Shown piece by piece: positions 4,218 to 56,972 of a stretch of 61,150 bases of DNA. The stretch lies in IMG/VR virus record IMGVR_UViG_3300025572_000003. The stretch is one strand, 5' to 3'. The DNA is from a virus. The translations under genes were made by a program, and so were the position numbers. The notes below the pieces were generated by a model that was not told the origin of the DNA, made no database searches, and was given only the letters and a program-made list of their open reading frames with translations. Each line of letters starts with the position of its first letter. The stretch's first letter is position 1.

Positions 4218-6614
4218 ATGTCTACCAACACCATGGCAAACAATCCTTTTGCAGCTAGGCTTGACCCGCTTCATCTGGCGCAAGACTTCCCGTACAAAGG
4301 CCTCTGCAAAGATATTTGGCGTGACAAGTATGCACAGCCGGGCGAAGAATCCTTCAGTGACACTGCACGCAGAGTGGTTGAAGGTGTTTACGCCAAAGAT
4401 CCGGATGAACAAGCAAAAATCCTCGCATATCATGCGATCAATGCGGGTCTTTGGGTTCCTGCCGGTAGAATCCTTGCAGGAGCTGGAACTGCGAAGCGTG
4501 TTACTCTAATGAACTGCTATGTTACCGGAACCATCGATGATTCGATGGAAGGTATCATGCGCGAACATACCAACTTTGCACTTACTATGCAGCAAGGAGG
4601 CGGAGACGGTGCTGATTTCTCTCCAATCCGTCCTGAAGGGGCTGTACTTAAACGCACGGGAACGAAAGCGTCGGGTCCGCTCCCTTTTATGGACATGTGG
4701 GACGCTATGTGCACTACTATTCGTAGTGCTGGTGATCGTCGGGGCGCTATGATGGCAGTGTTGAGTGACACGCATCCCGACTTGCCTAAATACATTGTTG
4801 CCAAGCAGACACCGGGTCGTTTGACTAATTTCAACATTTCCGTCCTTGTTTCCGACGCCTTTATGGAGGCTGTGAAGGATGATGAGGATTGGGTATTGCA
4901 CTTCCCGGTGATCCCTTGGGAGCGTGAGGATTGGCTCAAGGAATATGATTTTGTCGATGACAATGGTGTGCAGCAATATGCGTACTCCGTCTGGAAAGCT
5001 CGTGAACTGTGGGAATTGATTACCAAGAACACGTATGATTGGTCTGAACCAGGCGTTATCTTTATCGACCGAATCAACGAAGCCAATAATCTCTGGTACT
5101 GTGAAACTATCCGCTGTACGAATCCGTGCGGTGAACAGCCTCTACCGCCTCATGGCTCATGCAATCTCGGTCATGTCAATCTGGCGCGAATGGTTACCAA
5201 TCCGTTCACTGATAATGCGCAGTTTGACTTCAACCTTCTGAAAGAGATTGTTGCTATTGGTACGCGCTTCTTGGATAATGTGATTGATGTCACGAACTAT
5301 CCGCTTGAAGAGCAGCGTCTTGAGCAGTACAACAAACGTCGTATTGGTCTTGGCTTCACGGGTCTTGCAGATGCTATGGCTCAGCTTGGCATCCGCTATG
5401 GATCACTGAAGTCTGCTGATTTTGCCGAGCGCGTAATGAACTGCATTGCAGTCGCTACATATACGGCATCTATCAACCTTGCTAAAGAGCGCGGTGCGTT
5501 TCCGCTCTTTGATCCTGACCGATACCTGGATGAAAATTCGGGATCGTTTGTTAACAGGCAGATGCCTGCAGAGATTCGTGCGCTGATTCGCAAATACGGC
5601 ATCCGCAATGGTGTTCTAAACACGATTGCACCAACAGGCACCACGAGTATTGTATTTGGTAACTGTTCTGGTGGTCTCGAACCTGTCTTTGCACATTTTA
5701 CCCAGCGTAACGTGCGACAGGCAGATGGATCCTGGCTCCCATATCGTGAATACGGTTATGCTGCAAGACTCTTCTATGCACTGTTTGGAGAGACAACTCC
5801 TCTTCCATCGTACATGGTAACTGCAGAGGATCTGACTGTTCATGAGCATATCCTCATCCAGTCTCGAGTCCAGCGGTGGGTGGATGCATCAATTTCCAAA
5901 ACCATCAATATCCCTGAAAACATGCCTTATGACGACTTCGTCAAGGTTTACGAACTGGCATACAATGCAGGTTGCAAGGGATGCACCACTTACAGGCCAA
6001 GCGATGTACGTGGAGCAGTTCTTGTCAAAGCTAGCGATACCGATGCAACGGCAGAAAGCGGAAGCGGAAGCCCTGTTCCGAAAGCGGTGGAACAACTCAG
6101 AGAGCGTCCTGATGTCTTGCACGGATACACGTACAAGGTCAAGTGGCCCAGACGAGATGCTGCCTTCTACCTCACCATCAACGAGGACGATGAAGGAGTA
6201 CCGTTTGAAATCTTCATTACTAGCAAGGATGGATCGCACAGCGAGTGGACTACGGCACTTTCCTTGATGATCACAGCCATCTTCCGAAAAGGCGGTGATG
6301 TCTCGTTCATTCCGCAGGAACTTAAGCAGATTCAGTCTCTGCATGATGGTGCATTCATCGATCAGCAGTATGTTGGATCGCTTCCTGCATACATTGGTCG
6401 AATCCTTGAAAAGCATATGGAACGGAAGAAGGGCAATACCACGTCCCAGTCGGAGCTGAAGATTGCATCTGCCGATGGTGGATTGGCTATTGCTGACGGT
6501 AAGATCGTGATCAAGGATCAAAGAGGTGAGACTTGCCCCTCATGTAAAGCGCCGACACTCTTCCGAGTTGAGGGGTGCAAAAAGTGCAAGTCGTGCGGTT
6601 ACAGTGCATGTTAA
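4218..6614 (+). CDS. nrdJ: ribonucleotide reductase, class II (adenosylcobalamin-dependent)
   Basis: Active-site stretch CTNPCGEQPLPPHGSCNLGHVNL. C-terminal Cys cluster CPSCKAP..CKKCKSCGYSAC. GGAG RBS. Confidence 0.92.
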   Translation: MSTNTMANNPFAARLDPLHLAQDFPYKGLCKDIWRDKYAQPGEESFSDTARRVVEGVYAKDPDEQAKILAYHAINAGLWVPAGRILAGAGTAKRVTLMNCYVTGTIDDSMEGIMREHTNFALTMQQGGGDGADFSPIRPEGAVLKRTGTKASGPLPFMDMWDAMCTTIRSAGDRRGAMMAVLSDTHPDLPKYIVAKQTPGRLTNFNISVLVSDAFMEAVKDDEDWVLHFPVIPWEREDWLKEYDFVDDNGVQQYAYSVWKARELWELITKNTYDWSEPGVIFIDRINEANNLWYCETIRCTNPCGEQPLPPHGSCNLGHVNLARMVTNPFTDNAQFDFNLLKEIVAIGTRFLDNVIDVTNYPLEEQRLEQYNKRRIGLGFTGLADAMAQLGIRYGSLKSADFAERVMNCIAVATYTASINLAKERGAFPLFDPDRYLDENSGSFVNRQMPAEIRALIRKYGIRNGVLNTIAPTGTTSIVFGNCSGGLEPVFAHFTQRNVRQADGSWLPYREYGYAARLFYALFGETTPLPSYMVTAEDLTVHEHILIQSRVQRWVDASISKTINIPENMPYDDFVKVYELAYNAGCKGCTTYRPSDVRGAVLVKASDTDATAESGSGSPVPKAVEQLRERPDVLHGYTYKVKWPRRDAAFYLTINEDDEGVPFEIFITSKDGSHSEWTTALSLMITAIFRKGGDVSFIPQELKQIQSLHDGAFIDQQYVGSLPAYIGRILEKHMERKKGNTTSQSELKIASADGGLAIADGKIVIKDQRGETCPSCKAPTLFRVEGCKKCKSCGYSAC

Positions 6615-6626
6615 TAGGAGGACATA

Positions 6627-7196
6627 ATGAACAAGTCTGCCGAAACGTTTGACGAGCTGCAGCGTAACATGGAAGAGGCTTTCAAAGAGCTGACCAATAA
6701 TGTTCGACTGACTGAGCGTCCAACGCTTCCAGTCAGGGAACCCGCAGAGCGAGATATGCTGGGTCGTAAGAAGGTTATCGGCCTACGCAATGCAGACTCT
6801 GATGTGGGAGTTAATCCGAAGGATCGGATTGGTGCTGCCAAGATCGATTTCTCACTGATCCCAACGGCTGGCAAGATTGCTGAAGCCAAAGCACTGATGG
6901 ATGGTGGATCGAAGTATGGCCCATACAACTGGCGTGTGGAACCTGTTCGGGCACGTACATACATTAGCGCAATCGAACGTCACCTGGAAGACTATAAGGA
7001 AGGTCATGAGATTGCATCAGATTCCTTGATTGAGCATCTTGGCCATATCAAGGCATGCTGCTCCATCCTGATTGACGCCGCTGTTCAGGGTATGCTGATT
7101 GATGATCGTCCGATTAACCGCATTCAGGAGCGGTCACTCATTGATGAGGCCAACCAGTGGATCAAGCAGAACAAGCCGGAAGGATGGGGTCGATGA
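6627..7196 (+). CDS. MazG-like all-alpha NTP pyrophosphohydrolase-type protein (DUF5664 / dATP-dGTP diphosphohydrolase-like domain)
   Basis: Pattern KIDFSLIP..A.A...G..KYGPYNWR...Y..A..RHL......D..IEHLGH matches my recollection of this phage domain family. Perfect AGGAGG RBS. Confidence 0.45.
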   Translation: MNKSAETFDELQRNMEEAFKELTNNVRLTERPTLPVREPAERDMLGRKKVIGLRNADSDVGVNPKDRIGAAKIDFSLIPTAGKIAEAKALMDGGSKYGPYNWRVEPVRARTYISAIERHLEDYKEGHEIASDSLIEHLGHIKACCSILIDAAVQGMLIDDRPINRIQERSLIDEANQWIKQNKPEGWGR

Positions 7197-8286: not shown

Positions 8287-8964
8287 ATGGCTACCGATCC
8301 TGAACTTGGTGAAAAGATCCATAAACACCTTGTTGCCCTGGGGCTTGAAACGCCGATGGAGAAGAATCCAGAAGCACCCCTATTGGTCGACGGGGTACCC
8401 TTGAATAAGTTCGACAGTATTAAGCATTGCCACCACTTGACAATGCGTTCATTGGGTTTGGATCTTAATGACGACTCGTTGCGGGACACACCTAAGCGGA
8501 TCGCGAAGATGTACTGCAATGAGATCTTCACCGGACTCGATTACGCAAACTTCCCCAAGGCGACCACTGTTGAGAACAAGATGCAGTACAATGAAATGGT
8601 CTGCGTCAGTGGTATCACAGTACAGTCTATGTGTGAGCACCATTTCCTCCCGTTTGTTGGGACCGCATCTGTAGCGTATATTCCCGACAAGCTTGTACTC
8701 GGACTCAGCAAGTTCAATCGGGTGGTTGAATTCTTCTCTCGTAGGCCGCAGATTCAGGAAAGACTTACCGAACAGATCTCGGCAGCATTGCGGCTTATTC
8801 TCCAGACCGAAGATGTTGCAGTAGTCATCAATGCAGATCACTATTGCGTCAAGCTCCGCGGTATTCGTGATGGATGCTCAAACACCGTAACTTCTCGTTT
8901 GGCAGGTAAATTCCGCACTGTACCTGAACTGCGTGCAGAATTTCTGGCTTTGAGCCGTACGTGA
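8287..8964 (+). CDS. folE: GTP cyclohydrolase I
   Basis: CEHHFLPF zinc/active-site motif, typical length. First step of the preQ0 pathway. Confidence 0.9.
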   Translation: MATDPELGEKIHKHLVALGLETPMEKNPEAPLLVDGVPLNKFDSIKHCHHLTMRSLGLDLNDDSLRDTPKRIAKMYCNEIFTGLDYANFPKATTVENKMQYNEMVCVSGITVQSMCEHHFLPFVGTASVAYIPDKLVLGLSKFNRVVEFFSRRPQIQERLTEQISAALRLILQTEDVAVVINADHYCVKLRGIRDGCSNTVTSRLAGKFRTVPELRAEFLALSRT

Positions 8965-8984
8965 GGATGCTCTAAAAATAAAGT

Positions 8985-9017
8985 GGGGTGGATCCCGACG
9001 ACGAAAGGATCCACCCC
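8985..9017. terminator. bidirectional stem-loop between convergent plus and minus gene blocks
   Basis: GGGGTGGATCC (8985-8995) / GGATCCACCCC (9007-9017), an 11-bp perfect stem. The A-run upstream gives a U-tract for the minus strand. Confidence 0.75.
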
Positions 9018-9063
9018 TGCTGGTTTATGACGCCCGAATAATCGGAGGCAAACTACTCGGACA

Positions 9064-9273
9064 TCACCAGCATCCCTGTGACTCACCGTATTCGTTGTGT
9101 GCGAAGATCATATCTTCGGTCTCCTTGGTGAGTACATCTGCATGTGAAGGCCGGATAACTCGCCAGCCCGCACAGTTAGTCCCTATACCACTTGTTCCGC
9201 AAGCGCTGAGTAACGTCATCAGCAGCATTACGAACACGGTCTTCGATGTTATTGCGCAACCGTTCATTTTCAT
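9064..9273 (-). CDS. o-spanin (outer-membrane lipoprotein spanin subunit)
   Basis: Signal peptide plus lipobox LLSAC. Overlaps the 3' part of the i-spanin gene in another frame. Confidence 0.65.
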   Translation of the reverse strand: MKMNGCAITSKTVFVMLLMTLLSACGTSGIGTNCAGWRVIRPSHADVLTKETEDMIFAHNEYGESQGCW

Positions 9274-9421
9274 AGTTAGCCCTCATCTGTTTGTCCTGCT
9301 CCTGCTTTTTGCCGTCATTCTTCCCTTTGAAGAACGCCATAGCAATTGCCAGTAGAGCACCTAGGCCGACCAAAAGTTCTCCTAGGAATGGCTTGACAAG
9401 CCCATAGATAATGTCGAGCAT
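9176..9421 (-). CDS. i-spanin candidate (N-terminal TM helix + charged coiled coil)
   Basis: TM segment LLVGLGALLAIAMAFF followed by a K/E/R-rich helix. Immediately downstream of the endolysin and overlapped by the lipoprotein ORF. Confidence 0.55.
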   Translation of the reverse strand: MLDIIYGLVKPFLGELLVGLGALLAIAMAFFKGKNDGKKQEQDKQMRANYENERLRNNIEDRVRNAADDVTQRLRNKWYRD

Positions 9422-9424
9422 ATG

Positions 9425-10561
9425 TCACTCCTGGATTGCTGTCTGGTTCATACGCATCCATCGACGGATAAGTCCGTACATGATGAAGGCAATACCAGCA
9501 ACTACGATTGCACCCAACGCAAACTGCAGAATCTGATTACCCTCTACCAGGTTTCGAACCGTATCCACATGTTCAATAGCCTGATCAAGGGTAATTCCTG
9601 CAACTACAAGTCCACCACCGGCTGTTTCGGGTTTAGTGGATGGAGAGGTTGCAATTGGCTCATTTGAAGAAGGCTCAATAACTCTGGTAGCGGCGAGTCT
9701 CGCTTCGATCGCGGCAAGAGTTGCAGGGCCTGCAATGCCGTCGACCTTCAGCTTATTAGCCTTCTGAAAGTCACGAATAGCCCGCTCTGTTGCAGGACCC
9801 ATCCGGCCGTCAACAATGAGCTTTGGATTAGCTCCGAGTGCATTAAGATCTCGTTGCAGCTGCCGCGTCTTACTGTCGGTACGCGCAACATCCCAAGAAG
9901 TTGCCGTACCACCCATAATCCGCCAAACCTTATTGAACCAGCCCATCCGATCGTTATAGCCATTGTATCCGCCGTTAATCACTTTGGTAATGGCTCTTGC
10001 ATCGTTTTTGTCGGCAAGTGCATTGAGCTTATGCCTAGACCAGAAGCTCAGTGCAGGAAGAAGAATTACTGACGGAGTTGCAATCTTATCTGGATCTGCA
10101 TAGAGATCGATACCAATCTCCGCACTGAGACGCTTGTACTCATGTCCGCCAGTATTCTGCAGAGGACCGCCACCACGGTACTTGTAGCCATCACCCTTGC
10201 GAGTATTGCCGAGCTCTTTAGCCTTCTTCGGGTTGCCTAGACCATACACACGTTCTGCAAGTGCTTCAGGGTTATGCGCTAGTGCAGATGCTTCTGCTTT
10301 GGTAATTGCTGCAGAATGCTTGTTGACGCCAAAGACCTGCATAATTCGGGTTGCAGAATAGTTCATATTCTCCCGAACTGCAGTCAGCCCGCCAGACTCA
10401 TGCAGGATCTGTGCAAGGAAGTGTGCAGCACGCAGCTTGTTGTCGATCCCATAGCTTGCCCATAGGTTATTAGCATCTGCCAGTTCGAATGCCTTAAGGT
10501 AGATACTATTGGCATTCTTCAGACCAAGCTGCTTAATGATTGGATACAATTGCATCGACAT
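9425..10561 (-). CDS. endolysin: GH19 (chitinase-like) lysozyme + PG_binding_1 domain + C-terminal TM helix
   Basis: GH19 motifs HFLAQILHESGG and YKYRGGGPLQNTG. PG-binding repeat DGRMGPATERAIRDFQ..VDGIAGPAT. C-terminal FALGAIVVAGIAFIMYGLI. Start ATG 10561 has GGAGG 7 nt upstream. The longer ORF to 11008 overlaps the upstream gene. Confidence 0.85.
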   Translation of the reverse strand: MSMQLYPIIKQLGLKNANSIYLKAFELADANNLWASYGIDNKLRAAHFLAQILHESGGLTAVRENMNYSATRIMQVFGVNKHSAAITKAEASALAHNPEALAERVYGLGNPKKAKELGNTRKGDGYKYRGGGPLQNTGGHEYKRLSAEIGIDLYADPDKIATPSVILLPALSFWSRHKLNALADKNDARAITKVINGGYNGYNDRMGWFNKVWRIMGGTATSWDVARTDSKTRQLQRDLNALGANPKLIVDGRMGPATERAIRDFQKANKLKVDGIAGPATLAAIEARLAATRVIEPSSNEPIATSPSTKPETAGGGLVVAGITLDQAIEHVDTVRNLVEGNQILQFALGAIVVAGIAFIMYGLIRRWMRMNQTAIQE

Positions 10562-34468: not shown

Positions 34469-34486
34469 TGAGTGCAGTTTGGGTTG
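34469..34486 (+). repeat. intergenic box TGAGTGCAGTNTGGGYTG, copy 2
   Basis: tgagtgcagtttgggttg. See copies at 8169, 35547, 56927 and 38189 (minus). Confidence 0.9.
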
Positions 34487-34498
34487 AAGACCCGCAAT

Positions 34499-34549
34499 GT
34501 GGTGATGTGGTGATGCGGCGACATGACGATGCGGTGATGTGGTGATGTG
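34499..34549 (+). repeat. GATGTGG-type short repeat array (15-bp GGTGATGTGGTGATG twice, 32 bp apart)
   Basis: ggtgatgtggtgatg at 34501-34515 and 34533-34547. Confidence 0.85.
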
Positions 34550-35546: not shown

Positions 35547-35564
35547 TGAGTGCAGTTTGGGCTG
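35547..35564 (+). repeat. intergenic box TGAGTGCAGTNTGGGYTG, copy 3
   Basis: tgagtgcagtttgggctg. Confidence 0.9.
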
Positions 35565-35604
35565 AAGTGTGAACCCAAGCCTAAATATACATGTGCATAT
35601 ACAT

Positions 35605-47787: not shown

Positions 47788-48285
47788 ATGTCCAAATTTA
47801 GTGTATTCCGCAAGGCATGTAACCAGGCAAAGAACATTAAGCCATTCAGTGGAACACTCCTTGCATTAGATCCTGGTGAGACGACTGGTTGGGCAAGTTT
47901 TAGTGCAACTAATGAAGTGAGCGCACTTGTAGACCAAGGACAGATCAAGACTTGGCCTCAACAGGATATGGTTGAACAACTGACCAAGCTCTACGACCAT
48001 GTCAAACCTGATTTAGTGGTGCATGAATTATATACAGTATATGACTGGAAAACTGATGATCATGCATGGTCGCAGATTCCGACAGTACACGTTATTGGAT
48101 GCATAGAAACACTGTGCATTCAACGTAGTATCCCGTTCATTTCACAGACAGCACAAGTTGCAAAGAACTTTTGCACTGACAACAAGTTAAAGTCGTGGAA
48201 CTATTATATCGAAGGACGACGGCATGCCCGGGATGCAATTCGACACGGGTGTTACTTTCTATTGTTCGGAATGGTCAGCAAATAA
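47788..48285 (+). CDS. ruvC: RuvC-like Holliday junction resolvase
   Basis: N-terminal LLALDPGETTGWA catalytic Asp motif. ~165 aa. Confidence 0.7.
   Translation: MSKFSVFRKACNQAKNIKPFSGTLLALDPGETTGWASFSATNEVSALVDQGQIKTWPQQDMVEQLTKLYDHVKPDLVVHELYTVYDWKTDDHAWSQIPTVHVIGCIETLCIQRSIPFISQTAQVAKNFCTDNKLKSWNYYIEGRRHARDAIRHGCYFLLFGMVSK
48247..48270 (+). repeat. 24-bp direct repeat, copy 1 (inside the ruvC 3' end)
   Basis: gggtgttactttctattgttcgga, identical to 48648-48671. Confidence 0.95.
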
Positions 48286-48611: not shown

Positions 48612-48649
48612 TGATGTTCAAGCAAAGCCTGGGAAGCATAAGCTCAAGG
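48612..48649 (+). pseudogene. remnant of the 5' end of an HNH-like endonuclease gene
   Basis: tgatgttcaagcaaagcctgggaagcataagctcaagg matches 49557-49595 (the start of CDS 49559) with 4 differences including a 1-nt indel. Confidence 0.6.
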
Positions 48650-48671
48650 GTGTTACTTTCTATTGTTCGGA
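48648..48671 (+). repeat. 24-bp direct repeat, copy 2
   Basis: Identical to 48247-48270. Read in the ruvC frame it continues GCYFLLFGQLNTRL-stop. Confidence 0.95.
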
Positions 48672-49559: not shown

Positions 49560-50128
49560 TGGCTCAAGCAAAGCCTAGGAAACATAAACTCAAGGCGGGT
49601 CAGAAGATCCATTCGTGGACTCTGATCCAACGCCTTCGGGATGACACTACCACCAAAAGTCCTAATCTGAAGATCCGGTGGCGGTGCGAATGTGTATGTG
49701 GTACTCGGATGACTCTTCCGCAATACTATCTTGTCCGAGAGAACCCGAAGACAGATTGTGGATGCGGACGTAAGACTCTCAAGACCATTTACAACCAGGA
49801 ATATCGTATCTGGTTAATGATGCATGTCAGAACGGAAGATCCGACACATGTTGCGTATAAGCATTACGGTGGAAGAGGTATCCGGGTCTGCGATGAATGG
49901 CACAAGAGCAGGGGAGACGAGGGTTTCAAAGCCTTTCTTGACTTCGTCGGTCCGCGGCCATCACCGGCTCACTCAATTGACAGAGTAGATAATGACCTTG
50001 GCTATCAACCTTATCAAGCTGATGGAGTCACAAGGCAAGTTCGATGGGCTACAGCAAAAGAGCAAAGAGCCAATCAACGACCCTATACCTACCACAAACG
50101 AGACACTAAAAAGCCCAGCGAGCAATAA
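49559..50128 (+). mobile_element. free-standing homing-endonuclease-like gene (family often annotated as HNH endonuclease)
   Basis: Pattern YRIW..M..R...P.H..YKHYGGRGI.VCDEW...F..F..D.GPRPS..HSIDR.DN...Y......RWAT..EQ..N. ATG 49559 overlaps the upstream stop. Confidence 0.5.
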
Positions 50129-50259: not shown

Positions 50260-50904
50260 ATGGCAAGCCCGTACGAAGAAGGGCGTGAAGCGCGGTATTG
50301 TGGAATGCATCTGAGTCAGAATCCATACCCGCGCAATTCCGATGACTGGGCGTCGTGGCGTTACGGTTTTGTGGATGAAGACGTCCGACTGGCAACTGAA
50401 CGCCGTGCAAAACTGCATGTAGCCAAGTCTGTACAAAACCTGAAAGAGTTCATGAAAGAAGAGCAGCAAATGTCACTACCGCTCAACGGCGCAATTCAAA
50501 CGGTTGATTGTGTCTTTCAGCACGATCTCCGTCCGGAACTCGGCTACTACCACAATCCGAAGAAGAAGTATTCCTACTTGACTGACGATATGTCGATCAA
50601 GGTAGGTGACATTGTCGTAGTGGATGCCCCGTCGACGGGTTACACGTGCGTCAAGGTGGTCGGAGTGCATCCGTACATCGAGAAGCCTCGTGCAACTAAA
50701 TGGGTCGTCGGTAGGGTAGACGTTGAAGGCTTTGAAGCCGGACAGAAGCGTCGCGCTCGCATCCAGCAGTTGATGAACCAGCTGGATACTGCGGTCGAGG
50801 ATTACAAGAGGCGTGTCAAGTATGAAGAGATTGCAGAGCGGGATCCGACTGTGAAGGAACTCTTGGAGGAGCTCAACAAGCTTGCTGCTGGGAACGGGGA
50901 GTAA
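50260..50904 (+). CDS. hypothetical protein with Rmf-like N-terminal motif
   Basis: EGREARYCGMHLSQNPYPRNSDDWASWRYGF resembles the ribosome modulation factor pattern G..A..G....NPY......W..G. Confidence 0.3.
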   Translation: MASPYEEGREARYCGMHLSQNPYPRNSDDWASWRYGFVDEDVRLATERRAKLHVAKSVQNLKEFMKEEQQMSLPLNGAIQTVDCVFQHDLRPELGYYHNPKKKYSYLTDDMSIKVGDIVVVDAPSTGYTCVKVVGVHPYIEKPRATKWVVGRVDVEGFEAGQKRRARIQQLMNQLDTAVEDYKRRVKYEEIAERDPTVKELLEELNKLAAGNGE

Positions 50905-50984
50905 GATCAGCAGATCCAGCAAGGCGGCAGTCCTTAAATAACCACCGCGTACACATCCATGATTTCGAGTCATAGGAGATAGAC

Positions 50985-51572
50985 ATGCATTTCACCCAGT
51001 CCTCTACGCTTTGGTTGCGTCCCAATCCGATTAACAGTGGTGGTGAGTTTGCCCAGCTCATGAATGAGCGGGAGAAGCGCCGCGCAATGAACGCTTTCTC
51101 GGACAAGAAGCCCAATGAGGCTGATCGCCGTTGGATCCTGGGTGTTCTAACGGTCTTCGCAGATGCAGCCGAAGTTACCTTCGCACAGGCTGTGCACGCA
51201 TTCAAGACTGGTCGAATGGAGGCGCTGCGTAACTGTCACATCCGTCGACTGAGCCAGCTGAATACCGATCCGCGAGTTCATATGTTGCTGAAGCAGCCTA
51301 ATCCTCCGTTTCATGAACCGATTTTGAAGGAGCTGGAGAGTGTTCGGAAACTTGCCAACATGAGCGAAAATGATCACATTGCCTTTTTGCGTAAGGCGTG
51401 GTCGTTTGCACTCACTGTTCGGCATGAATTTGATGAACTTCCTCCGATGCTGAGTGGGCTCAAGTCGGATGATGCTGACACTACAGTGAAGCCCAAGAAG
51501 GTACGTAGCCGCAAGAGACGGGCTACTGCAGAGAAGGTTGCCCAGACACCTGCTGAACCAGTTCATGCATAA
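50985..51572 (+). CDS. hypothetical protein
   Basis: ORF track. Confidence 0.5.
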   Translation: MHFTQSSTLWLRPNPINSGGEFAQLMNEREKRRAMNAFSDKKPNEADRRWILGVLTVFADAAEVTFAQAVHAFKTGRMEALRNCHIRRLSQLNTDPRVHMLLKQPNPPFHEPILKELESVRKLANMSENDHIAFLRKAWSFALTVRHEFDELPPMLSGLKSDDADTTVKPKKVRSRKRRATAEKVAQTPAEPVHA

Positions 51573-51573
51573 C

Positions 51574-51636
51574 TGCCTCTGATGAGCTCTAGGCATAGAG
51601 CGAAACTAGTCCTATCGTGTTAGGGCTAGTCAGGCA
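51574..51636 (+). ncRNA. type I hammerhead self-cleaving ribozyme (predicted cleavage after C51631)
   Basis: Helix I is TGCCT/AGGCA. The core is CTGATGA. Helix II is GCTCT-aggcat-AGAGC, followed by GAA. Helix III is ACTAGTCC-tatcgtgtta-GGGCTAGT (one G.U pair). The GUC cleavage triplet is present and all conserved core nucleotides are canonical. Confidence 0.85.
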
Positions 51637-51842
51637 CGCAGATAGAGGGGGGTCTACAATCAGTGGATGCTGCAACCGGAAGTTGATCATTCCGGCCAAG
51701 GTAATGCATATGCGGTGTAGATCACTGTCGAATGCCTTAAGGCCACGTTGCTACTTGCTGCGCATTTGGCAACTGTGGTAGGCGTAGAGTGAAGTGTACT
51801 AGTGGAATCGATTTCTGCAGGATCGGTGACGATACTTAGTAC

Positions 51843-52184
51843 ATGGATCTCTACGCAATCCTCGTTCTTAACCTATTTGGTGTAGAAGCACAAATCATGG
51901 GCAAGAAAGATCTATACACTATCAGGCAGAATAAGCCTGATGACGTCACCTACGAGTGCGTCAAGGTTGATCCAGACTCTACGTCTGTACAGGTTTATCA
52001 CATCTCTGACCTACCTGGTGGTGCAATGATCTGTACTTGCCCTGCAGGTGGTCGTCCAACATGTCGTCACCGTCAGATGCTTCGACTATTCCAGGCTGAG
52101 GAGCGAATCAATTCTGGCTGGATGTACCAATTCGATTCCAAGAAATGGCTTGAACCGCAAACGGATGACCAAAATGGTGAATGA
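51843..52184 (+). CDS. SWIM zinc-finger protein (start may be ATG 51897)
   Basis: CTCPAGGRPTCRHRQML = CxCx(n)CxH SWIM signature. Confidence 0.6.
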   Translation: MDLYAILVLNLFGVEAQIMGKKDLYTIRQNKPDDVTYECVKVDPDSTSVQVYHISDLPGGAMICTCPAGGRPTCRHRQMLRLFQAEERINSGWMYQFDSKKWLEPQTDDQNGE

Positions 52185-52455
52185 ACCTGACAATACACGC
52201 ATGTGCGTAAATTGCGGTCGTAAACGTCCAGCCAGCGAAGGACGTGACACCCCTCATCCAGATTGTACATCACCAGACGCTTGTTCTTGGGATTTGACTC
52301 TTGAAGAAGCTTGGCAATACTGGCGTCAGAAGTACTACGATCTTCATAAGATGGTTGAACGAATTGACGCCATCGTGCATAAGCCATCTCTCATCGACGA
52401 AGAGCGCATCAGCGACATCAGAGCAATCCTCCGTCGCGAGGTCATCCGTCAATAA
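52174..52455 (+). CDS. hypothetical zinc-ribbon-like protein
   Basis: CVNCG...C..PDAC. Start overlaps the SWIM gene end. Confidence 0.4.
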   Translation: MVNEPDNTRMCVNCGRKRPASEGRDTPHPDCTSPDACSWDLTLEEAWQYWRQKYYDLHKMVERIDAIVHKPSLIDEERISDIRAILRREVIRQ

Positions 52456-56926: not shown

Positions 56927-56944
56927 TGAGTGCAGTCTGGGCTG
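56927..56944 (+). repeat. intergenic box TGAGTGCAGTNTGGGYTG, copy 4
   Basis: tgagtgcagtctgggctg, 2 nt after the exonuclease stop codon. Confidence 0.9.
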
Positions 56945-56972
56945 AAAAACCGGGCTGAAACCAGAGGAAATA

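Follow-up and report, generated by a model that had tools for sequence, protein, structure and literature searches.

A type I hammerhead ribozyme motif between cistrons of a siphovirus-like phage and its proposed role in mRNA processing

Hammerhead ribozymes located between the genes of phages and prophages have been described, among them those of PaP3 and Bcep176, the clusters of a C. scindens prophage and the 'HHphage' hammerhead of the haloviruses HF1 and HF2 (PMC3088659). It has been proposed since 2011 that such ribozymes cut long transcripts into mRNAs of gene or operon length (PMC3088659). The in vitro cleavage of polycistronic constructs of about 2 kb supports this processing idea, and the 5′ end of a transcript of halovirus HF2 maps within 3 nucleotides (nt) of the hammerhead cleavage site (PMC3088659; reviewed in PMC6765202). 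Phage hammerheads are considered to be common, while their biological role is unproven (2019 review, PMC6765202). Here we describe a type I hammerhead at positions 51574-51636 of the IMG/VR virus record IMGVR_UViG_3300025572_000003, a stretch of 61,150 base pairs (bp) that was analyzed over its whole length and is called the window below. Since intergenic phage hammerheads and a processing role for them are known from the 2011 work, the surprise here is modest, and an earlier note on this DNA, made from the sequence alone, overstated the novelty of the element.

The motif is 63 nt long and reads, in order on the plus strand, UGCCU / CUGAUGA / GCUCUA-GGCA-UAGAGC / GAA / ACUAGUCCUA-UCGUGU-UAGGGCUAGU / C / AGGCA. 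The 5′ strand of helix I (UGCCU, 51574-51578) pairs with AGGCA at 51632-51636, as found from both sequence and fold, and is followed by the core residues C3 U4 G5 A6 U7 G8 A9 (CUGAUGA, 51579-51585), which were located by direct reading and by the descriptor match and align to the invariant core of the Rfam models Hammerhead_3 and RAGATH-1-hammerhead. The hairpin of helix II (51586-51601) comprises 6 bp counted from G10.1-C11.1 and the loop GGCA, and that of helix III (51605-51630) comprises 10 bp counted from A15.1-U16.1, including one G.U, and the loop UCGUGU; both were delimited by descriptor and fold. G12 A13 A14 are read directly at 51602-51604 between the two hairpins. By hammerhead numbering, the predicted scissile bond lies between C17 of the GUC triplet (51631) and A1.1 (51632), so that AGGCA would also form the 5′-OH end of the downstream RNA. 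The cleavage site at C51631/A51632 and the chemistry of the ends are predicted from established hammerhead chemistry.

All the invariant positions are canonical, namely C3-A9, G12-A14, A15.1-U16.1 (A51605-U51630) and C17 in its GUC triplet, and the pairs adjoining the core are standard ones (G51586-C51601 at 10.1-11.1 and U51578-A51632 at 1.1-2.1). The three helices of 5, 6 and 10 bp contain no mispair and a single G.U. Because this pair (U51610.G51625) becomes an A.C mismatch when read from the minus strand, the hammerhead fold is specific to the plus strand. Only one spacer base (C51573) separates helix I from the TAA stop codon at 51570-51572, and the motif conforms to the acceptance rules of Perreault et al. 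2011 (PMC3088659). The earlier note had described a canonical plus-strand type I hammerhead with every invariant core position intact, whose first base is 2 nt past a stop codon, and carrying a G.U pair valid only on the plus strand; the exact reading, the descriptor and the minimum free energy (MFE) fold agree with all of this. Its helix I of 5 bp is also right, but helix II has 6 bp rather than 5, owing to the pair A51591-U51596, and helix III has 10 rather than 8.

Searches with structural descriptors gave the same answer. The type I descriptor, defined by the core CUGANGA, GAA, A15.1-U16.1, H17 and three helices, matched one site on the two strands of the window, which was 51574-51636. Descriptors for the three permutations (types I, II and III) returned the same site and no other on both strands, with type I alone being matched and the type III descriptor giving zero matches in the window, which corresponds to a topology where helices II and III are closed by loops and helix I is open. 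When 300 dinucleotide-preserving shuffles were searched with the type I descriptor, 0.13 matches per window were found for helices of at least 3/3/3 bp and 0.003 for at least 4/4/4 bp, and none of the 300 matched at the observed level of at least 5/5/8 bp. The chance expectation is effectively zero, and the hammerhead is not a product of chance. The MFE fold of the isolated 63-nt RNA is the hammerhead secondary structure itself (-26.6 kcal/mol, z = -3.5), and the pairing probability in every flanking context folded was 0.97-0.99 for helix II and 0.95-0.98 for helix III. In addition, when the whole window was compared with 4227 Rfam families by cmscan in sensitive mode, the sole match with E < 1 was to a hammerhead model, at the site of this motif (E = 0.0087). 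The possibility that the element is an intrinsic terminator was rejected, as it has no GC-rich hairpin followed by a U tract; CAGGCACGC follows helix III. Judged from its letters and predicted fold, 51574-51636 is a genuine and well-formed type I hammerhead.

Related hammerheads were found in other phages using a pattern of core-proximal bases (CTCTGATGAGC..GCGAAACT..AGTCAG), which fixes 25 bases and for which, by a rough estimate, about 0.1 chance matches are expected. The pattern matched 14 IMG/VR viral contigs (L010-L023), for example at L015 3322-3386 on the minus strand and L018 6486-6559 on the plus strand. Perfect type I hammerheads accounted for 14 of the 15 matches, the exception being the first copy in L018, whose helix II is 2 bp by the count of the script, and helix I was 5 bp long in all but the L017 match, where it is 4 bp. 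A covariance model derived from the window sequence recovered the pattern set together with others on the same contigs that the pattern had missed, giving 16 hammerheads besides the copies of the window and of a variant of the same phage (L004). The resulting alignment of 18 sequences (16 from IMG/VR, the window and L004) is not one of orthologues. In this alignment, which is fitted to the model and in which the pattern dictated 25 positions of some of the sequences, 95.3% of the cells are standard pairs, compared with 25-38% when the partners are slid by 1-3 columns. Under the same caveat, compensatory changes on both sides were observed at 16 of the 21 pairs, helix I was 100% paired, and none of 500 shuffles reached the covariation score. 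The core-proximal pairs are identical in the window and in the IMG/VR hammerheads. Signs of covariation of the helices, which the earlier note had suggested as a check, appear in this model-fitted set of 18 phage hammerheads, whereas the lineage of the window itself offers one loop change.

The alignment also revealed a feature outside the search pattern. A UAA is located 0-1 nt before helix I in 15 of the 18 rows, and in 8 of the 11 pattern-derived sites that were checked it is the in-frame stop codon of the upstream open reading frame (ORF) at a distance of 0 nt. The upstream ORFs of the IMG/VR hammerheads are mostly unrelated. The flank in the window is gcAUAAc, and the heptamer UGCAUAA is common to the window and the L018 copy at 5577. 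A rule of UAA-stop adjacency for phage type I hammerheads was not found in the literature examined. The tendency of most phage type I hammerheads examined to start 0-1 nt after UAA, as it appears from these sequences, is worth testing with a larger and less biased sample.

This subtype of hammerhead seems to be mainly viral, because a broad pattern applied to 185,579 genomes gave just three matches, in two Flavobacteriales metagenome-assembled genomes and one of Melainabacteria; a lineage-specific DNA pattern gave zero matches in the same genomes. Two of the comparator contigs show particular arrangements. L018 has four hammerheads on one strand within 4.3 kb (5577-5642, 6486-6559, 6984-7046 and 9795-9861), flanking single small genes, which is the clustered arrangement of Perreault et al. 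2011. In L017, a hammerhead (8871-8924) is found inside a transfer RNA (tRNA) array at 8686-10183, separated by 27 nt from the preceding tRNA and by about 245 nt from the following one.

The genome that carries the hammerhead is, to judge from its genes, that of a siphovirus-like double-stranded DNA phage of about 60 kb, and the window is essentially the whole of it. The genes include those for terminase, portal, a major-tail-like protein, tape measure, tail protein J, endolysin, DNA polymerase and ribonucleotide reductase, as well as ligase, primase, SNF2 helicase, exonuclease, Sak4 and QueC. The same phage is present on 18 metagenomic contigs and is known from metagenomes only, such as ENA ERZ777003 and SRR29487296, and a blastn search of 50900-52300 against 50,697 GenBank phage records gave no match. 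Every large ORF between about 38 and 61 kb is encoded on the plus strand, genes of DNA metabolism are located on both sides of the hammerhead, and neither a sigma-70-like promoter nor an intrinsic terminator was predicted in 51000-52290. For these reasons, the 'operon boundary' at which the earlier note had placed the element is not supported, and an intercistronic role is favored by the run of plus-strand genes together with the lack of promoter- or terminator-like sites around it.

We consider it probable, at roughly 0.6, that this type I hammerhead belongs to a long rightward transcript for replication and nucleotide metabolism and cuts it between cistrons. According to this model, helices II and III would form stable hairpins once transcribed, the 5-bp helix I would close the three-way junction, and the 2′-OH of C51631 would attack the adjacent phosphate. 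The upstream mRNA, carrying the ORFan gene described below, would then end 59 nt past its stop codon with a 2′,3′-cyclic phosphate, capped by the two hairpins of the ribozyme. The downstream RNA would start with 5′-OH AGGCA and continue into a structured leader of 260 nt and the genes for a SWIM-like protein, a Zn-ribbon protein, dcd and SNF2, in this order. A fast-evolving accessory gene would in this way be split from the replication genes, and the two halves would be free to differ in stability and translation. Whether each product is stabilized or destabilized would depend on the RNases of the host. Co-transcription, activity in vivo and effects on expression are what we infer from this arrangement.

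Several observations weigh against an active intercistronic ribozyme. Transcription across 51574-51636 is an assumption, and cleavage there is a prediction from sequence and established chemistry. Rfam used at its gathering thresholds gives no hammerhead match in the window. No hammerhead was found in the distant relatives L001, L005, L006, L007, L008 and L024, and the element's own lineage provides a single near-identical variant with one loop change, so that no compensatory change is shown there. Folding in flanking context gave helix I a pairing probability of just 0.03-0.12. In longer contexts, a register-shifted pairing is more stable than helix I by 0.7-2.0 kcal/mol according to the nearest-neighbor model. 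A recognized tertiary contact between stem I and stem II, whether loop-loop, loop-bulge or pseudoknot, was not found in the element. Finally, the next gene is 260 nt away, compared with 18-27 nt in the IMG/VR examples, which makes the downstream half of the cistron-separator picture less obvious.

With respect to the Rfam result, Hammerhead_3 scored 31.4 bits at the locus against a gathering score of 48.5, and its alignment is forced into the type III permutation. This type III alignment (51556-51611) was rejected: 2 of 7 helix III pairs and 1 of 5 helix I pairs are non-standard, and a U is inserted between U16.1 and C17. The RAGATH-1-hammerhead model (RF03152), the only one in Rfam whose alignment of the element has the right topology (type I), gave 25.5 bits against 56.3. 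However, when the thresholds were calibrated with the hammerheads of eight IMG/VR loci (L010, L012, L013, L014, L017, L018, L022 and L023), these also missed every gathering score, with 30-35 bits for RAGATH-1 (the best being 34.9 versus 56.3), 26 bits for Hammerhead_3 and several loci without any match. Since all these comparators are sub-threshold, the thresholds appear to be insensitive to the class of phage hammerheads with a short helix I, and the miss is not counted against 51574-51636. The Rfam score had been put forward in the earlier note as a means of refutation; formally the outcome goes against the hammerhead, but for the reason given here we judge it uninformative. It also follows that standard Rfam annotation under-reports the short-helix-I hammerheads of phages.

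The low pairing probability of helix I in context is explained by the greater stability of the register-shifted alternative, in which CUGC at 51573-76 pairs with GCAG at 51638-41 and UCUG at 51578-81 with CAGG at 51631-34, sequestering C3-G5 and C17. This alternative, as modeled, could be an on/off switch or an artefact of the energy model. As regards tertiary structure, the tetraloop of helix II is not of the GNRA type, helix I has just 5 bp and no contact is evident, so that cleavage at physiological Mg2+ could be slow, while many natural hammerheads have no predicted tertiary contact (Perreault et al. 2011, PMC3088659). The only candidates were short ones, such as a possible extension of helix I past an internal loop of 5 nt and 1 nt. 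A pseudoknot of the loop II GGCA with UGCC at 51538-41 or AUGC at 51565-68 is at the chance level for 3-4-mers and is not claimed.

In the variant phage (L004/L009), whose identity to the window is 94-98% throughout, the hammerhead is kept and is 98% identical, with A51595G at the fourth base of loop II as the only change, a difference that carries little information. The gene upstream of the hammerhead is an ORFan of 195 amino acids (aa) at 50985..51572 on the plus strand, ending with the TAA at 51570-72, and it is also called on ENA and Logan contigs. Among 5.8 billion proteins it matched two clusters, one of which is that of the variant phage, and it has no Pfam or PHROG match and no relatives in IMG/VR. 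Between the window and L004 it is 94% identical in nucleotides and 89% in amino acids, and its 35 differences are distributed as 10/10/15 over codon positions 1/2/3, compared with 97.5-98.5% nucleotide identity for the adjacent genes. From these counts, the ORFan appears to evolve almost neutrally between the two variants.

Distant relatives, which were sought through the SNF2 and SWIM-like proteins, are syntenic on both sides, with a gene for a 214-aa protein upstream and those for SWIM-like, dcd and SNF2 downstream. The slot between them differs. In the region equivalent to about 50905-51896 of the window, which holds the ORFan, the hammerhead and the leader, L005 has a tRNA-Pro (UGG) at 5577-5652 with an unrelated ORF of 105 aa, and L006 has a tRNA-Leu (UAA) at 254-338 with an unrelated ORF of 97 aa. 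Within the stretches fetched, L001, L024, L007 and L008 showed neither hammerhead nor tRNA. A covariance-model match in L005 (6941-7007, E = 0.089) was discarded because it lacks the core. In the window, no tRNA was found by ARAGORN and no tRNA match by Rfam, and a non-coding gap of 324 nt surrounds the hammerhead within this slot. By comparison of gene content, the slot that holds the hammerhead is accessory and hypervariable, and is part of the replication gene block.

This variability bears on the question of which cleavage product matters. The hammerhead may serve the upstream cassette only, acquired together with the ORFan and giving it a self-made 3′ end whose structured 3′ untranslated region and cyclic phosphate would act against 3′ exonucleases, and the downstream effect would then be incidental. 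Cleavage of a type I hammerhead in this position would leave 58 nt with two stable hairpins on the 5′ product, beginning 1 nt past the stop codon; the stop adjacency recurs in the IMG/VR hammerheads behind unrelated ORFs; what lies between the genes for the 214-aa and SWIM-like proteins is wholly different among the relatives; and homologues of the ORFan are limited to this phage. On the other hand, joint mobility is unsupported, as a second copy of the ORFan or the hammerhead in another context was not found, and the explanation differs from intercistronic processing only in the product that is considered important. We regard it as improbable, though it survives best among the alternatives.

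The slot may also be viewed in terms of what its occupants have in common. A tRNA in this position is excised from its transcript by enzymes of the host, and the slot might be a 'punctuation site' that is filled either by a tRNA, as in L005 and L006, or by a hammerhead. The UAA placement would then be functional, through folding gated by termination or through a tertiary role of the UAA flank, and cleavage would be linked with the translation of the gene upstream. This is a speculative extension, and we give it a slightly smaller chance than the explanation by a protected 3′ end.

The leader (51637..51896, plus strand, 260 nt) is non-coding and is predicted to be structured. It has stops in all three plus frames, the longest open stretch being about 53 codons. 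Folding of 51632-51900 gave z = -3.4, and none of 200 shuffles folded as well, where z-scores from single-sequence folding are weak evidence. No Rfam match at E <= 10 was obtained for the leader, and it is not a degraded copy of the slot genes of the relatives, as no similarity to them was seen. In the variant phage it is 96.7% identical, and all 4 of the 4 substitutions in predicted pairs keep the pairing, which is again weak evidence. It contains no member of the 20 largest families of direct repeats that were listed for 34-61 kb. The SWIM-like gene that follows (51897..52184, plus strand) encodes 95 aa with a CxCx8CxH motif. Its called ORF of 113 aa (51843-52184) was shortened to the ATG at 51897, because homologues have 92-95 aa and the extension 51843-51896 carries an in-frame TAG in the variant (L009, 94-98% identical); matches by tblastn also begin at 51897. 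The real start is therefore 260 nt past the hammerhead, and of the distance of about 210-260 nt in the earlier note, the upper value holds. The start called at 51843 is too early. The 113-aa ORF gave no Pfam match at E <= 0.01 and the SWIM-like protein no PHROG match at E <= 0.001; the motif was seen by eye.

A further alternative is that the hammerhead sets the 5′ end of a non-coding RNA with a function of its own, consisting of the 260-nt leader or a part of it, which would take the role of the tRNA of the relatives. The leader is non-coding and folds far better than its shuffles, the equivalent slot of L005 and L006 contains tRNA-Pro and tRNA-Leu while the window contains none, the L017 hammerhead is inside a phage tRNA array, and HDV-like (hepatitis delta virus-like) theta ribozymes adjoin phage tRNAs (PMC10879173). 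Against this, the leader belongs to no Rfam family, has no tRNA-like fold and no defined 3′ end or terminator, and its conservation of 96.7% in the variant is no higher than that of the neighboring genes, the z-score being of limited weight as stated above. We consider this alternative quite unlikely, a step below the punctuation site.

Cleavage could also be conditional and report the translation of the upstream ORF, being gated either by termination at the UAA, where the ribosome would cover helix I and the core, or by the register-shifted helix. In the window, as in most of the IMG/VR hammerheads, helix I begins 0-1 nt past the stop codon, the alternative helix that sequesters C3-G5 and C17 is more stable in silico by 0.7-2 kcal/mol, and Perreault et al. 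raised the idea of regulated cleavage for phages (PMC3088659). This argument is purely inferential: the UAA adjacency may equally reflect genome compaction or a tertiary role of the A-rich 5′ flank, and nearest-neighbor energies ignore the core and the tertiary interactions of a hammerhead. Accordingly low is the chance that we give to gating, lower than that of a leader RNA. These three explanations, in which a protected 3′ end, a leader RNA or a gate is the point of the cleavage, refine the model of intercistronic processing and do not contradict it. Least probable of all is that the motif has no function or is decaying, being either a chance match or what is left of an insertion in an ancestor, because the scores below the Rfam gathering thresholds, the absence from all more distant relatives and the lack of compensatory change in its own lineage are opposed by a flawless core and intact stems, with none of the expected defects at 11 invariant positions and 21 base pairs, by a chance expectation of effectively zero, and by an architecture and UAA flank common to a covarying class of phage hammerheads.

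Other features of the surrounding genome were noted. Repeated motifs of 25-45 nt, such as GGGTGTTACTTTCTATTGTTCGGA and TGAGTGCAGTYTGGGYTGAAG, are found at or near gene ends of the plus-strand block (48226-48270 and 48627-48671; 48618-48649 and 49564-49595; 34469-34494, 35547-35572 and 56927-56952), and ATGTGGTG is repeated in tandem (34497-34547) at a divergent junction near 34.5 kb. These motifs may be regulatory sites or promoters of the phage, and the hammerhead leader contains none of them. A Zn-ribbon-like ORF of 93 aa (52174-52455), between the SWIM-like gene and an ORF of 65 aa, is absent in L009, which is otherwise 96-98% identical, and its absence marks a second indel-variable spot.

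The intercistronic hammerhead of the window leaves the knowledge of the ribozyme class unchanged. It is a clean single-copy case, with a perfect core, in a near-complete genome, and between a fast-evolving ORFan and replication genes. As natural comparators with a tRNA in the same slot exist, it is a possible system for testing whether ribozyme cleavage uncouples the stability or translation of mRNA on the two sides of a cistron junction. The points worth following are the slot that holds a tRNA or a hammerhead, the adjacency to the stop codon and the blindness of Rfam to this class.

Compared with the phage hammerheads of Perreault et al. 2011 (PMC3088659), the element is alike in class, canonical core, intergenic position among co-directional genes and proposed role. 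It differs in that those examples include clusters flanking genes, while the window has a single copy without a recognizable pseudoknot or loop-loop element, and in that HHphage is located 13 nt before a start codon, while here a leader of 260 nt follows. The RAGATH-1 hammerheads of RF03152, which are not treated in the main text of Weinberg et al. 2017, resemble it in the 5-bp helix I, the core, the long helix III and the GUC, and an upstream hairpin of 4 bp with a 9-nt loop can be drawn. In the window, however, the linker has a 15-nt insertion relative to the model, and the upstream 'hairpin' is inside coding sequence and unsupported. Membership in RAGATH-1 was rejected on the Rfam score (25.5 versus 56.3 bits). 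The HDV-like theta ribozymes of gut Caudoviricetes are likewise small, self-cleaving and linked to tRNA (Kienbeck et al. 2024, PMC10879173). They are of a different class, however, and the tRNA link of the window, which has no tRNA itself, is an indirect one through the slot of its relatives and the L017 array.

The IMG/VR hammerheads (L010-L023) share with the window the type I topology, the open helix I of 5 bp, AUAA or AUAAC 0-1 nt upstream and the covarying stems. In contrast to the window, they are AT-rich, mostly have an A/U-rich loop II of 7-9 nt (commonly UGAGAUU) and A-rich 3′ flanks, and mostly lie 18-27 nt before the next ATG, often with several copies per genome. The single copy in the window is richer in GC, has a GGCA tetraloop on a helix II of 6 bp and precedes a long leader of 260 nt.

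Outside the ribozymes, the closest known system is tRNA punctuation, in which RNase P-RNase Z processing cuts polycistronic transcripts at an embedded structured RNA. The slot of the hammerhead is similar in that a defined cut would be made at an embedded RNA, and the slot is occupied by a tRNA in two relatives. The difference is that tRNA punctuation depends on host enzymes and leaves 3′-OH and 5′-phosphate, while the hammerhead is predicted to be cut by the RNA itself, leaving 2′,3′-cyclic phosphate and 5′-OH.

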